A stretch of DNA of 64,000 nucleotides from Thermoanaerobaculia bacterium (GCA_046331465.1 JAXLQV010000003.1:1472420-1536419); one strand, 5' to 3'. Positions 50,288 to 54,409 are shown, counted from the first letter of the stretch. Notes: generated by a model from the letters alone, not told the origin. Translations and numbers: made by a program.

Positions 50288-50328
50288 AATCGGACGACGG
50301 GGCAGCTCCGCTTGCCCGAAGGTGCAGG
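50288..50328 (-). promoter_or_regulatory. Copy A of conserved bipartite motif CCTGCACCTTCGGGCA-N8-TGCCC-N4-GTCCGATT (putative promoter/operator)
   Basis: Identical 16-mer and identical 17-nt spacing to GTCC(G/A)(A/G)TT also found at ~54369-54409; ~55 nt upstream of REC start. Confidence 0.5.
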
Positions 50329-50376
50329 CCGTTCGCGGAGCGGAGCCGAGGCGGCGGGGCCGCCTATCATCGGGGA

Positions 50377-52227
50377 ATGCGGCCGACGCGCGGTCCGGCG
50401 CTGGCACGGGGGGCGCTCGTCGCCGCGCTCGTCCTCGCGGGACCCGGCCGGGCGCAGACGGACGTCGCGCGCGGCCGGCCGACCCCGGGCGGGGACGTCG
50501 ACCTCCTCCTTCGGCTTCCGTCCGCGAGGATCGCCGCGCCTCCTGCCGACGGGAACGGGGCGGCGAAGGCCCCCGCCGTCCACGTCGATGGCCCGGAGCT
50601 GCTCCTCCGGTACGGCGCGCGCCTGACGTTCGAGATCGAGCTGCCGCCGTTCGCCGAGCTCGTCGCGGAGCGGGTCTTCGCCCGCGGCTCGGCGACCGGG
50701 CGGCTCGAGGCCTCCTGGCAGGGGGACGGAGCCCCGACGCGTCGGCTCTCGACCGACCTGTCGGAGCTCGGCGACCCGCGCGTCCGCGTGGGGAACCCGG
50801 TTCGCCGGAAGGGGAGGCTGACCCTCGCGGCGACGGCCCGCCGGGTCGTCGACCCGCGCGGCGCCGGCATGGTCCTGGTCGCTCCCCGCGTCGTCGCGGG
50901 GACGCCCCGGGTCGCGCCCGCCCCGGCGCCCGCCGCGCCCCCGGGGGCGCCGAACGTCCTCGTCTTCCTGGTCGATGCGCTCCGCCGCGACCGCGTCGGC
51001 TGCTACGGCCGGGGCCGCGGCACGACCCCTGCCCTCGACCGGTTCGCGGCCGAGGCGGTGGTCTTCGACGACGCCCAGGCGCAGTCGTCCTGGACCTGGC
51101 CGGCGGTGGCCTCCATCTTCACCGGCCTCTGGCCGCAGCGGCACCACGTCGATGCGCGCGGCGGCCGCCTGCCGAAGGAGGCGCGGACGCTCGCCGAGAT
51201 CGTCTCCGCGGCGGGCGTCGCGACCGCCGCGATCGTCGCCAACGGCAACCTCGACGCCGCGTCCGGGTGGGCCCAGGGGTTCGAGTCCTTCAAGTACCTC
51301 CGCGAGGTCCGCTCGGACGAGTACCACGCCCGCCCCTCCGACGTCGCGGAGGCGCTCCTCGACTGGCTCGACGGCGAGGCACGCCGGCCCTTCCTCCTCT
51401 ACGTGCACGCGCTCGGGCCGCACAACCCCTGGGGGCGCAGGGAGCCCTTCCACTCCCGCTTCGCGGGCGAGGTCGAGGACCCGGACCTCGGCTCGCTGGA
51501 GTGGCAGAGGCGGCTCGAGCGGACGCGGGAGCCCGTCGCCCCCCGGACCGTCGCCGACGTCGGCGCGCTCTACGACGCCGAGGTGGCCGAGAACGACGCG
51601 GCGTTCGGGACCGTGATCGAGGGGCTCCGGCGGAGGGGACTTCTCGATTCGACCATCGTCGTCGTCCTCGCCGACCACGGCGAGGAGCTGTTCGACCACG
51701 GCCGCTTCGGCCACGGCGCCTCCCTCCACTCGGAGGTGCTCGACATCCCGCTCCTGATCCGCTTCCCGGGCGGCCGCCGGACGCGCCGGGTCGCCGAGGT
51801 CGTGGAGCAGGTGGACCTCCTGCCGACCGTCCTCGCCCTCTACGGGCTCGCGCCCCCGGCGCCGGTCCAGGGACGGAGCCTCCTGCCGCTCTGCCGTCCC
51901 CGTCCGCCCGTCGACTGGAAGGACCGGTCCGTCTCGCACGTCGAGCGGGTCGGCCGCGTCGTCGGCGTCAGCTGGCTCGAGCCTTCCTGGAAGCTGATCC
52001 TCCGGCAGGGGGAGGGGACGGTCGTCGCGTCGCTCTTCGACCGCCGCGTCGACCGGCGCGAACAGCGGGACCTCGCGGCGGAGCGGCCGCAGGACCTCGC
52101 CCGGCTCCGTTCGGCCCTCGCGCGGACGCTCGCGACGACGCCGGGCGGCCTCGAGCGGCCGCGGGGCTCGTCCCCGGCCGACGACGAGGTGCGGAAACAG
52201 CTCCGCTCCCTCGGCTACCTGCAGTGA
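50377..52227 (+). CDS. Sulfatase-family (alkaline-phosphatase superfamily) exported protein
   Basis: Signal peptide; VLVFLVDALRRD, SSWTWPAVASIFTGLWP, VVVLADHGEELFDHGRFGHG motifs of PF00884 family. Confidence 0.7.
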   Translation: MRPTRGPALARGALVAALVLAGPGRAQTDVARGRPTPGGDVDLLLRLPSARIAAPPADGNGAAKAPAVHVDGPELLLRYGARLTFEIELPPFAELVAERVFARGSATGRLEASWQGDGAPTRRLSTDLSELGDPRVRVGNPVRRKGRLTLAATARRVVDPRGAGMVLVAPRVVAGTPRVAPAPAPAAPPGAPNVLVFLVDALRRDRVGCYGRGRGTTPALDRFAAEAVVFDDAQAQSSWTWPAVASIFTGLWPQRHHVDARGGRLPKEARTLAEIVSAAGVATAAIVANGNLDAASGWAQGFESFKYLREVRSDEYHARPSDVAEALLDWLDGEARRPFLLYVHALGPHNPWGRREPFHSRFAGEVEDPDLGSLEWQRRLERTREPVAPRTVADVGALYDAEVAENDAAFGTVIEGLRRRGLLDSTIVVVLADHGEELFDHGRFGHGASLHSEVLDIPLLIRFPGGRRTRRVAEVVEQVDLLPTVLALYGLAPPAPVQGRSLLPLCRPRPPVDWKDRSVSHVERVGRVVGVSWLEPSWKLILRQGEGTVVASLFDRRVDRREQRDLAAERPQDLARLRSALARTLATTPGGLERPRGSSPADDEVRKQLRSLGYLQ

Positions 52228-52230
52228 AAA

Positions 52231-52285: not shown

Positions 52286-53035
52286 CTACTGCCCGGGCAC
52301 GGAGTCGCCGGAGTTGTCGACGAAGTCGAGCTGGAAGGAGTCGTAGACGCTGCAGTCGTTCCAGCCGTCCTGGTTCGCGTTGAACTGCTGGGTGACGAGG
52401 ACGAGGTTCTTGTTGTCCGGGCTGTACAACGTGATCATCACCTTCGAGTTGATCAGGTTCATCACGTTGTGCATCTTCGCGTCGTCGACCGGGTTCGCCC
52501 AGCGTCCGCACTGCTTCGAGCCCGCGGCGGCCCAGGACTGCGTCCCGTGGGGCCGGAGCGCGAACCAGGTGCCGTTGTGCAGGCTGCTCGCGTCGCCGGC
52601 GGCGTCCTGGTTCGCCATGACGATCTCGAAGGAGGAGTCGGACATGTAGCTGTCGTCGAACGAGTAGACGGCGGTTCCCTTCCAGGAGAGCGGGTCGGTG
52701 CTGCACCCGCCGTCCTCGTTCTCCTGGATCGACCGCATCGGGCCGACGTGGTTGCCCGCGAGGTCCCACGGAGAGGTCCCGCAGGTCCCGGGGCAGCAGC
52801 CGTCGTGCTCGTCGACGTTGTAGCTCGCGACCTTCAGGTTGTAGTAGGTCAGGTTGACGACCGTCGTCGTGGGGCCGGACTTGTAGACCCAGATCCCGGC
52901 TCCGTTCTGGCCGGCGAGCGCCGGCGCCGCGCCGGCGACGAGCACGGCGAGCAGGGGCGCGGCGAGGAGGAGGAGCGCGGCCCTCGCCCCGAACCCGATG
53001 CGGGCCGTGCGGTTACTTGTGGCTCGGTCGCGCAT
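52286..53035 (-). CDS. Hypothetical secreted protein (Cys-rich, Asn/Ser/Asp-rich)
   Basis: Signal peptide; no recognised domain; lower local GC; 23-nt overlap with upstream gene. Confidence 0.5.
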   Translation of the reverse strand: MRDRATSNRTARIGFGARAALLLLAAPLLAVLVAGAAPALAGQNGAGIWVYKSGPTTTVVNLTYYNLKVASYNVDEHDGCCPGTCGTSPWDLAGNHVGPMRSIQENEDGGCSTDPLSWKGTAVYSFDDSYMSDSSFEIVMANQDAAGDASSLHNGTWFALRPHGTQSWAAAGSKQCGRWANPVDDAKMHNVMNLINSKVMITLYSPDNKNLVLVTQQFNANQDGWNDCSVYDSFQLDFVDNSGDSVPGQ

Positions 53036-54257
53036 GGCTCCCGTCTCCTTTCACCGAGTACTTGCCCTTCTCCATCGCCGCGGCGAGCACCTCGAGCAGG
53101 CCCTCCTGCGCCCTGGTGAGCGGCTTGCGGGCGCGGAGGGACACGAGCGTCGTCTGGAGCGTCTGCTTCTGCTCCACCTCGAGGGAGTTGTAGAGGTGGC
53201 AGAACTGGTAGAAGGCGCGCTTCTTGTTGTGCCGGAGCTGCGAGTTGATCCTCTTGCCCGCGGGGTGCCTCGTCACCGGCGACGACGCGGACGAGATCGT
53301 CGACGTGAGGTACTGGTCCGGGGTCCAGAGGGTGATCATGAGGATCGGGGCCGACCCGCAGCAGCCGGTGCCGCTGATGTCCTCCCCGCGCAGGATCTGG
53401 GACGTGACCATCACCTGGGAGCTGAAGTGGCCCGTGCCGCTGCCCCACTCGACGTCGACCGCGTCCGTCTGGTCGCCGGTCGAGGAGTGCGTGTGGACTT
53501 CCGGCGTGGCGCCCGTCCCGGACTCGGGGACGATGTAGGCGGCGACGTACGCCTTCTCGCCGCCCGTCTCCTCCGCGTTCGCCGCCTCGAAGGACGAGCT
53601 CGCGAGCTCCTTGGTCGCCACGAAGAGGTCGTACCACGCGACCGGCCCCGGGTGGAGGGCGCAGCCGAAGAGGTCGACGAGCTCCGTCACCGCGGACGAG
53701 ATGACGCGGAAGATCTCGCTCCTGAGCTGCTTCTTCGGCTTGTCTCGCGTCACCCAGAGCCGCAGCGAGACGTCCTGGTTCGTCAGGTGCGCGTCGTTCC
53801 AGACCTGGCGGATGGTCCAGCCCATCGAGCCGTTCGTCACGTAGCCGCCCTGGTCGTCGAAGCTGAGGGCGAAGCTGTAGGGGTGGAGGGCGTTGTTCGG
53901 GGACTGCCCCGTGTACGCCCAGTTCCCGTCCTTGATCTCCCAGGCCCCGGGCAGGAGGGGGATCGACGCCGGCCAGCCGATCGGCGCGAACATGAAGCTC
54001 TTGTGCGTCTTCCGGTTCTTGTCCGTGTTCCCGAGGGCGGTGATGCCGCTCGGGTCGGCGTCGACCTTGTACGGGGTCAGGTTGAGGATCTGCACCGCGA
54101 GGGTCTTCGAGTGGGACGCGATGAAGACCAGGTCGGCCGGGGTGGGCGGGTCTCCCGAGGTGGGGTGTGTGTACGTCGACGCCGTCGCCGTGAGCCCCAG
54201 CGCCAGGCTGAACGCCAGCACGGCGGCCCATCCGATGAATACCGTTCGTCGTCTCAC
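53013..54257 (-). CDS. Hypothetical secreted protein (414 aa)
   Basis: Signal peptide VFIGWAAVLAFSLALGLTATAST; AAGGAGG RBS; no recognised domain. Confidence 0.5.
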   Translation of the reverse strand: MRRRTVFIGWAAVLAFSLALGLTATASTYTHPTSGDPPTPADLVFIASHSKTLAVQILNLTPYKVDADPSGITALGNTDKNRKTHKSFMFAPIGWPASIPLLPGAWEIKDGNWAYTGQSPNNALHPYSFALSFDDQGGYVTNGSMGWTIRQVWNDAHLTNQDVSLRLWVTRDKPKKQLRSEIFRVISSAVTELVDLFGCALHPGPVAWYDLFVATKELASSSFEAANAEETGGEKAYVAAYIVPESGTGATPEVHTHSSTGDQTDAVDVEWGSGTGHFSSQVMVTSQILRGEDISGTGCCGSAPILMITLWTPDQYLTSTISSASSPVTRHPAGKRINSQLRHNKKRAFYQFCHLYNSLEVEQKQTLQTTLVSLRARKPLTRAQEGLLEVLAAAMEKGKYSVKGDGSHARPSHK

Positions 54258-54368
54258 GCGGTCCTCCTTTCCCACGAAGCGCGCGCGTCCGGGCGGCTCG
54301 TCTCTCCGGGTCTGCGCAGCTCGACCGGACACGCGACGCTCACGGTCTCCCCCGCGCCGGACCCGGTC

Positions 54369-54409
54369 AACTGGACACTCGGGCAACGCGACATGCCCGA
54401 AGGTGCAGG
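54369..54409 (-). promoter_or_regulatory. Copy B of conserved bipartite motif CCTGCACCTTCGGGCA-N8-TGCCC-N4-GTCCAGTT
   Basis: Same motif/spacing as copy A; ~110 nt upstream of the secreted-protein operon and 34 nt downstream of the LuxR-type regulator stop. Confidence 0.5.

Follow-up and report, generated by a model that had tools for sequence, protein, structure and literature searches.

The stretch of DNA considered here (64,000 nucleotides, hereafter referred to as the window) originates from a Thermoanaerobaculia bacterium (GCA_046331465.1 JAXLQV010000003.1:1472420-1536419) and contains two copies of a 41-nt motif, named copy A and copy B, which lie in front of two operons on the minus strand. 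The genes were called from the G+C content at third codon positions (GC3 frame plot) in combination with Pfam searches. Read 5' to 3' along the minus strand, a gene for an OprD porin is followed by the genes for a sensor histidine kinase (HK) and a response regulator (RR) composed of a receiver (REC) and a GerE-type helix-turn-helix (HTH) domain, copy B, the genes of two secreted proteins named B1 and B2, a sulfatase gene on the plus strand, copy A, a REC-only gene and a gene for a secretin with DUF333 domains. These genes are the following:

57054..58337 (-), OprD-family porin, directly upstream of the kinase gene on the same strand
55078..56979 (-), sensor histidine kinase with a FixL-like core; its stop codon overlaps the start of the regulator gene
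54443..55081 (-), response regulator with REC and GerE/LuxR HTH, FixJ/StyR subfamily (Pfam); proposed binder of the boxes described below
53016..54257 (-), B1, secreted protein of 413 amino acids with signal peptide, without match in Pfam or NCBIfam; heads the operon under copy B
52286..53035 (-), B2, secreted protein of 249 amino acids with signal peptide, without family match; its gene shares 20 nt with B1
50377..52227 (+), sulfatase (PF00884), divergent from copy A
49837..50232 (-), stand-alone receiver REC of 131 amino acids with intact acidic pocket, D60, T88 and K110; first gene under copy A
47813..49840 (-), secretin with signal peptide and two N-terminal DUF333 domains (Pfam); ATGA overlap (49840-49837) with the REC stop, predicted to be translationally coupled

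Architecture of the repeated element

The exact 16-mer CCTGCACCTTCGGGCA is present at 50313-50328 (-) and 54394-54409 (-), and no further copy was found elsewhere in the window, even when 3 mismatches were allowed. In both places it is followed by N8, TGCCC, N4 and GTCC(G/A)(A/G)TT, just as the original prediction had described, and the in-register identity of the two copies amounts to 30 of 41 positions. Copy A is situated 55 nt upstream of the GTG start codon of the REC gene (50232), within a divergent intergenic region of 144 nt. Copy B is likewise intergenic; it begins 33 nt past the TGA stop codon (54445-54443) of the regulator gene and ends 111 nt ahead of the GTG start codon of B1 (54257). 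Both copies are in promoter position and have the identical orientation relative to the downstream gene. The GC3 plot and the Pfam searches bear out the earlier assignment of copy A to the REC/DUF333-secretin operon and of copy B to an operon of two secreted proteins without known function, just past the stop codon of a LuxR-type regulator.

Taken alone, the exact repetition of a 16-mer is weak evidence in a codon-biased window of such high G+C content (73%, regional range 67-78%), in which we counted 118 repeated exact 16-mer pairs compared to 20-31 in first-order Markov simulations. The CCTGCACCTTCGGGCA pair is regarded as non-random because of its extended in-register match, its intergenic position and, above all, the evidence from outside genomes. 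A weight matrix built from 26 sites of other genomes, with the window sites left out, gave 47.4 bits for copy A and 44.5 bits for copy B, the next best position in the 64 kb scoring -5.5 and the best one in five shuffles 0.9. Additional copies were detected in the window neither by mismatch searches nor by weight-matrix scans. The 41-nt repeat is confirmed as a real feature, and the claim that it represents a cis-regulatory element linking the two operons is upheld by the comparative evidence and by the foreign-site matrix, which finds only these two copies.

The alignment of the window copies with orthologous sites resolved the layout of the element, which reads box 1, TGC(A/C)C-N4-G(G/T)GCA, then 8 nt, box 2, TGCCC-N4-GnnC(A/G), then 1 base and T(T/G)G. 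Each box is a 14-bp inverted repeat with arms 4 bp apart, and the box-to-box period of 22 bp corresponds to two helical turns. The half-site centres are 9 bp apart, twice per site, which is the inverted-repeat spacing expected for operators of GerE-type HTH dimers. Box 2 ends 1 nt ahead of a putative -35 element, which is separated by 17 nt from a putative -10 element; class II-like promoters have this kind of layout, with 16-18 nt between -35 and -10 and the activator site abutting or overlapping the -35, as box 2 does. The GTCCRRTT block of the original prediction comprises the right arm of box 2 together with the first two bases of this -35, and the -10 proposed here lies beyond the 41-nt motif. 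The predicted elements, with box centres computed by placing the -10 at -12 to -7, are:

50313..50326 (-), copy A box 1, TGCAC-CTTC-GGGCA, 14-bp inverted repeat, predicted centre ~-65.5
50291..50304 (-), copy A box 2, TGCCC-CGTC-GTCCG, an inverted repeat weaker than box 1 and 22 bp further downstream, with its centre predicted at ~-43.5
50284..50289 (-), copy A predicted -35, TTGCTT, only T-K-G conserved
50261..50266 (-), copy A predicted -10, GAAATT, 17 nt after the -35
~50254 (+/-2) (-), copy A predicted transcription start, with a ~22-nt leader containing GGGAGG
54394..54407 (-), copy B box 1, TGCAC-CTTC-GGGCA
54372..54385 (-), copy B box 2, TGCCC-GAGT-GTCCA
54365..54370 (-), copy B predicted -35, TTGACC
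54342..54347 (-), copy B predicted -10, GACCGT
~54335 (+/-2) (-), copy B predicted transcription start, with a ~78-nt leader

Conservation and gene context in other genomes

A genome-wide pattern search, which had been proposed as a check together with the original prediction, was conducted as a DNA-only exact-pattern scan with TGCMCNNNNGKGCANNNNNNNNTGCCCNNNNGNNCRNTKG in 185,579 genomes, one per species, and returned 60 loci. The hits were then examined by tblastn with the window proteins and by Pfam searches on the genes downstream of each hit. Approximately 27 of the 60 hits adjoin relatives of the kinase (39-63% identity) or of the regulator (45-66%), or precede genes for REC, sulfatase or the sulfatase maturase FGE (formylglycine-generating enzyme). 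These hits are distributed over Gamma-, Beta- and Alphaproteobacteria, Planctomycetota, Acidobacteriota and Myxococcota, and in about 20 loci across phyla the motif lies beside the HK-RR pair, which is the sole regulator-type gene set co-occurring with it at this scale. Sigma or anti-sigma genes were not seen among the called genes of those related loci for which gene tables were returned.

The usual gene order is HK, RR, motif, REC and one or more sulfatases, as found in Contendobacter, Rubrivivax, a Thermoanaerobaculaceae metagenome-assembled genome (MAG), Rhodopirellula and an uncultured-bacterium MAG (L035). In Aestuariivirgaceae and Alsobacter, HK and RR are followed by the motif and REC, and no sulfatase gene was detected in the part that was fetched; the loci of two Burkholderiales MAGs begin at the motif, so that only motif, REC and sulfatase are visible. 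Moreover, the motif directly precedes a sulfatase gene in five loci (L013, L033, L041, L049, L055), the FGE gene in four Variovorax species and a phosphoketolase gene in L030, and a weight-matrix scan of other loci revealed further sites before genes for an outer-membrane beta-barrel protein and a serine dehydratase. Among the targets of the motif, the REC-only gene is the one best conserved elsewhere, being kept in nearly every genome. The core regulon would accordingly consist of REC and sulfatase, with the secretin and B1-B2 appearing as a lineage-specific addition. The earlier idea of a regulon holds, and its centring on exported proteins does not, as the regulon is wider and the targets elsewhere are mostly the REC-only protein and sulfatases.

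Promoter statistics were collected from a table of 32 sites having a gene context of the HK-RR, REC or sulfatase type. The half-site TGC(C/A)C is invariant or near-invariant across the 32 sites, and the middle positions of the central 4 nt of the boxes are A/T-rich. In box 1, changes at the symmetric positions 4 and 11 are independent of each other (C/G 22, A/G 5, C/T 4, A/T 2), as would be expected of half-sites bound by a protein and not of an RNA stem. Among the positions that were not part of the pattern, T at 0 is kept in 24/32, A15 in 20/32, A62 in 30/32, A65 in 22/32 and T66 in 31/32 sites; the three -10 positions (A62, A65, T66) thus lay outside the search pattern. T38 and G40 (each 32/32) and K39 were fixed by the pattern for the scanned sites, and T-K-G is present also in 6 sites found independently of it. 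We assign TKG to the promoter and not to the box, because box 1 is without a TKG flank. Positions 61-66 lie exactly 17 nt beyond T38-K39-G40, giving a -35 of the form TKGnnn and a -10 of the form gAnnAT, and judged from this sequence pattern TKG-17 nt-gAnnAT reads as a weak -35/-10 pair of the housekeeping (sigma-70-like) type. A62 and T66 occur jointly in all 8 sites of the window clade (GAAATT, GACCGT, GAACGT, CACCCT, AAGCCT, GATTCT, GACAAT, AACCCT) and in only 2 of the 34 hits lacking the gene context.

In a motif-blind check, three kinase homologs were picked regardless of the motif. The order HK-RR-...-REC was found in 3/3 of them, 2/3 having in addition a sulfatase gene followed by a HAD hydrolase gene, and boxes in a looser form were located right after the regulator gene in both loci for which DNA was available (L087, L088). 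The architecture is general, not invariant, and the table derived from the pattern makes it look more uniform than it is. In L002 (10416-11408), in L087 (14434-15447) and in the P0026 locus, the sulfatase gene is followed by one for a HAD-family hydrolase, which may likewise be a conserved part of the regulon.

The gene module of the window was also followed through B1, which is a rare protein with 13 homologs among 5.8 billion proteins; B1 and B2 have 11-13 database homologs each. Contigs of the closer B1 relatives carry kinase, regulator, DUF333-secretin, B1, B2, REC and sulfatase in shuffled order, so that the sulfatase clearly belongs to the conserved module. Five loci combine HK-RR with secretin/B1-B2, namely L001, L002, L003 (=L003/L004, a MAG labelled Chondromyces), L008 (a Thermoanaerobaculia MAG) and L075, with 50-76% identity of B1 to the window protein. 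The motif stands directly after the regulator gene in 5/5 of them, aimed at the first gene of the module (secretin or B1), and in L003, as in the window, another copy lies between sulfatase and REC. A weight-matrix scan found no extra site between secretin and B1 in L002, L003 and L075, hence secretin-B1-B2 looks like one operon there, and in the window the same set appears to be split into two operons, each with its own motif copy. More distant B1-B2 pairs exist in L006, L007 and L076-L086, the latter with 37-41% identity and a G+C content of 47-57%. The kinase and the regulator had no match in any of these loci, and motif searches gave no copy in L076-L086 and no credible copy in L006 and L007, which indicates that the control of B1-B2 by this system is lineage-specific. 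The gene adjoining the B1 homolog of L006 has Ricin-B lectin domains and matches B2 over two stretches.

Several hits show variant arrangements of the boxes or related boxes in other contexts. In a betaproteobacterial MAG, three tandem boxes with a 22-bp period precede a sulfatase-like gene (L064 4897-4958). Fibrella and several Oscillospiraceae MAGs possess TTGCCCATTTGGGCAA-type units in tandem, 4-5 copies to an array and with a period of 22 bp, so that palindrome and period are as in the operator (L058 3714-3843; L045 1727-1810; also L015, L018, L032, L056, L065). The L045 array adjoins genes for a DnaB-like helicase and an Xre-type HTH protein. These arrays are possibly iterons of mobile elements and probably unrelated look-alikes. 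Conserved two-box hits outside the sulfatase context occur in Azonexus (L023/L052/L059), Bifidobacteriaceae (L017/L046), Amycolatopsis (L029/L039/L043/L044), L054 and L066; most of them have a plausible -10 one base closer (16-nt spacer), and L017/L046 keep 17 nt. In the Azonexus loci and in L017, genes close to the hit encode LuxR-type HTH proteins whose recognition helix reads ERT(V/I)K. The TGCCC-N4-GGGCA box may be read by a wider clade of GerE-type regulators.

Proposed mode of action and alternative explanations

We consider it quite probable, as judged from sequence comparison, that the motif represents the operator of the adjacent FixJ/StyR-type regulator joined to a weak sigma-70-type promoter, through which two operons are activated. 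The original prediction had offered an operator of the adjacent LuxR-type regulator as one of its two options, and it is this option that the comparative evidence favours. A regulator of the REC plus GerE type co-occurs with the site, and the recognition helix (A/S)ERTVKxxRA is common to every regulator found beside the motif. In the proposed sequence of events, the neighbouring histidine kinase would phosphorylate the regulator (54443-55081), and two phosphorylated dimers would bind to one face of the DNA, centred at ~-65.5 and ~-43.5. The proximal dimer would touch the -35 region and recruit RNA polymerase in a class II-like activation. The REC-only gene and the DUF333-secretin gene would be transcribed from copy A, B1 and B2 from copy B. 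A feedback of the REC-only protein on the kinase is probable, with the protein serving either as a phosphate sink or as an inhibitor; a damping effect is considered probable because of the analogy with the receiver FixT feeding back on FixL.

Several observations weigh against this proposal or narrow its basis. The 32-site table stems mostly from a pattern that fixes the boxes, hence the conservation of the boxes is partly circular, and it is the -10 and the flanks, together with the gene context and those sites that were found independently, that provide unbiased support. The source genome was not among the 185,579 scanned ones, which limits the count of regulon members to the window. A strict sigma-70 consensus scan found no promoter at either copy, a result that is expected for a weak activator-dependent promoter and does not count as positive evidence. 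Among the motif-blind loci, L088 has a degenerate box 2, lacks A62/T66 and has no clear -10 at the canonical distance, and L087 has an inter-box spacer of 7 nt (not 8) and a degenerate right arm. In L002, no recognisable site was found in front of the REC gene. Furthermore, regulators with 45-50% identity (Variovorax, Planctomycetota) are no closer to the window protein than StyR is (44%), and from these identities the label ortholog appears safe only in the group with 55-66% identity.

The same operator could also serve a regulator that acts as a repressor or in a dual role, with box 2 occupied and RNA polymerase blocked until a signal removes the regulator, and the end of box 2 just one base before the -35 would suit such a function. 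StyR is known to repress as well, by multi-site binding and looping (PMC2442086). Nevertheless, the boxes are located wholly upstream of the -35 and cover neither the -10 nor the start, and the -35/-10 pair is weak, as in activator-dependent promoters. A -43.5/-65.5 geometry on one helical face is, moreover, typical of activators and speaks against repression, which we regard as unlikely. It is very unlikely that the boxes belong to another transcription factor encoded elsewhere, with the adjacent regulator as a bystander. Look-alike boxes do exist in other places, for example the 22-bp arrays next to the DnaB-like helicase gene, and the Azonexus and Bifidobacteriaceae loci carry other LuxR-type HTH proteins, but it is the HK-RR pair alone that co-occurs with the motif across phyla, and its regulators share the recognition helix.

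Reading GGGCA and GTCC as the -35/-10 of an extracytoplasmic function (ECF)-like sigma factor, the other option of the original prediction, is highly improbable, although 17 nt separate the two blocks and G+C-rich -35/-10 pairs with a GTC-type -10 do exist among ECF promoters. The blocks turned out to be arms of two inverted repeats, GTCC itself is variable (ACCG, GCCC, GTGC, GGAC), an AAC-type -35 is missing, and a separate canonical TTG-17-gAnnAT is conserved at a fixed distance in 30/32 sites. ECF promoters typically combine a conserved AAC-type -35 with a CGT- or GTC-type -10 at a distance of 16-17 nt, in most cases with a linked sigma/anti-sigma gene pair. In addition, the element retains its layout in four or more phyla, where the HK-RR pair accompanies it, and the returned gene tables of the related loci contained no sigma/anti-sigma gene among the called genes. 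A sigma-54 promoter was rejected as well, since GGGCA-N8-TGC sets GG and GC one base too far apart and the output domain of the regulator is GerE and not AAA+; the reference for such promoters is TGGCAC-N5-TTGC at -24/-12, used together with an enhancer-binding protein.

An RNA element, either hairpins of a 5'-leader or, in case of copy B, the 3' end or terminator of the regulator transcript, is extremely improbable. Each box could form a 5-bp G+C stem with a 4-nt loop, and copy B lies 33 nt past a stop codon. Yet covariation is absent, as 9 of the 11 changes at the varying box 1 positions 4/11 break the pair; neither copy has a T-tract or a terminator call, Rfam 15 gave no match at E<=1 in 49700-54700, the boxes are upstream of the conserved -35/-10, and copy A follows no gene on its own strand. 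That the motif is a dispersed repeat (REP/MITE-like) or a chance repetition is the least probable of all these explanations despite the 118 exact 16-mer pairs of the window, given that the window has only two copies, each at the place of a promoter and each facing its downstream gene in the same way, and that the element occurs in matching gene context in more than 25 unrelated genomes.

Target genes and comparison with known systems

The core targets, a feedback-type receiver and formylglycine-type sulfatases or their maturase, point to the sensing of sulfated substrates as a plausible role. The sulfatase gene of the window has its own predicted -10 TATCAT (50365-50370), 6 nt before the ATG, and that of L003 has a TAGAAT likewise 6 nt before the start codon (L003 9899-9913), which suggests a leaderless sulfatase mRNA in both. 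The distance between the sulfatase promoter and the boxes is not kept (~-57.5 in the window versus ~-129.5 in L003). A direct control of the sulfatase gene from the copy A boxes is unsupported, as its own -10 lies by the ATG and the box distance is not conserved. The OprD porin gene is also found in the near-identical contig L071, and no motif copy stands in front of the porin gene of the window.

In the window, L002, L003 and L075, the secretin gene was not seen to have any further genes of type II, type III or type IV-pilus systems next to it, and from this context the DUF333-secretin may function as a stand-alone export pore. As called, the 3' end of the secretin gene (47813-47970) overlaps a convergent plus-strand open reading frame (46141-47970) by ~158 nt, so one of the two ends may be mis-assigned. 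B1 and B2, both without Pfam or NCBIfam hit and thus without the sequence profile of aegerolysins or actinoporins, share a short N-terminal motif of the NLT(P/Y)Y type. The structure model of B1 resembles the beta-sandwich of aegerolysin/actinoporin folds, plus an extra helical insert and a C-terminal helical domain, and the fold hits of B2 are similar. The nearest known counterparts are aegerolysin/actinoporin-type membrane-binding proteins such as Cry34Ab1, OlyA6, RahU and FraC. These models are of moderate quality (pLDDT 62-64) and the fold matches have 8-14% sequence identity, hence a membrane-binding fold of this kind is a possible lead and not an assignment; a MACPF-type partner was not seen.

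One may speculate, as a rather unlikely extension, that in this lineage an ancient two-component system controlling sulfatases took over a self-contained export-and-attack module. In it, the secretin would export the aegerolysin/actinoporin-like pair B1-B2, which would bind or permeabilise target membranes and be co-induced with the sulfatase once the periplasmic sensor detects a sulfated compound of prey or host. If true, the module would amount to a bicomponent toxin system that depends on a secretin, has a defined switch and had not been recognised before. Apart from this, the predicted co-regulation of B1-B2 and the solitary DUF333-secretin is the sole functional clue so far for these proteins. 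The analysis converts an anonymous repeat into a testable circuit with a candidate binder, operator and promoter predictions at base resolution and two target operons, and it provides a first functional handle on a widespread unnamed two-component system, whose operator is unusually conserved in at least four phyla. A prior description of the operator, its two-component system or its regulon was not found in the literature, and a paper on Planctomycetes sulfatase genomes makes no mention of this two-component system. The EmbRS system of Rubrivivax was considered and rejected as being the same system, because it has a kinase with 10 transmembrane segments and the gene order RR-HK.

The closest solved relative of the regulator in the PDB is StyR (1yio; E 2.8e-51, 44% identity), and the architecture of REC plus GerE is shared with the StyS/StyR system, which acts on the STY2 site of PstyA in Pseudomonas fluorescens ST; TodS/TodT is similar. 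StyR dimerises upon phosphorylation, its activation requires an inverted-repeat site at ~-40, it can form a tetramer or dimer of dimers across two sites, and it is able to repress via multi-site binding and looping (PMC2442086). The recognition helix differs, with ERTVK (ERTVKLHRA) in the window regulator compared to EVTVK (AEVTVKVHRH) in StyR and SPRTIEVYRA in FixJ of B. japonicum. Furthermore, the boxes described here are strictly 22 bp apart and adjacent, without an evident site for integration host factor, and the targets are REC, sulfatases, secretin and B1-B2, whereas those of StyR form a catabolic operon. The STY box is A/T-rich, unlike TGCCC-N4-GGGCA of the window, and StyS has a cytoplasmic double-kinase architecture, whereas the kinase of the window has a periplasmic sensor. 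Membership in the StyR/TodT regulon was discarded in view of the 44% identity, the different helix and a box sequence unrelated to the STY box.

The periplasmic N-terminal part of the window kinase gave only a faint match to ABC_sub_bind (E 0.047), and Pfam and related domain searches found no PAS or haem domain in this protein. Its homologs (more than 1,768 at E<=1e-60) are all generically named, some of them with a precomputed ABC_sub_bind hit. The regulator remained below every equivalog cutoff of NCBIfam, among them those for FixJ (170.9 vs 255), TtrR (140.8 vs 290) and NarL (76.4 vs 250), and its scores are far under the cutoffs for NarL, NarP and UhpA. The '7-2-7' heptamer pairs of NarL and the DosR/DevR box are likewise inverted repeats that GerE-type HTH dimers recognise, and the centres of their half-sites are spaced by ~9 bp. 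Both NarL and DevR appeared as distant PDB hits of the window regulator, and the half-site sequence and arm orientation of their operators differ from those found here.

The mechanism proposed here is, as read from the sequence, apparently well known in kind, namely a site for a NarL/FixJ-family activator abutting a weak sigma-70-type promoter. In its set of components, the window system resembles FixL-FixJ, having likewise a FixL-like kinase core, a FixJ-like regulator and a stand-alone receiver. In Caulobacter crescentus, the stand-alone receiver FixT is induced by the pathway and inhibits the kinase FixL as a negative feedback (PMC7078487). The window REC has retained the Asp, Thr and Lys residues and, different from FixT, its gene carries the operator assigned to the regulator of the same system, so that its control appears to be direct.

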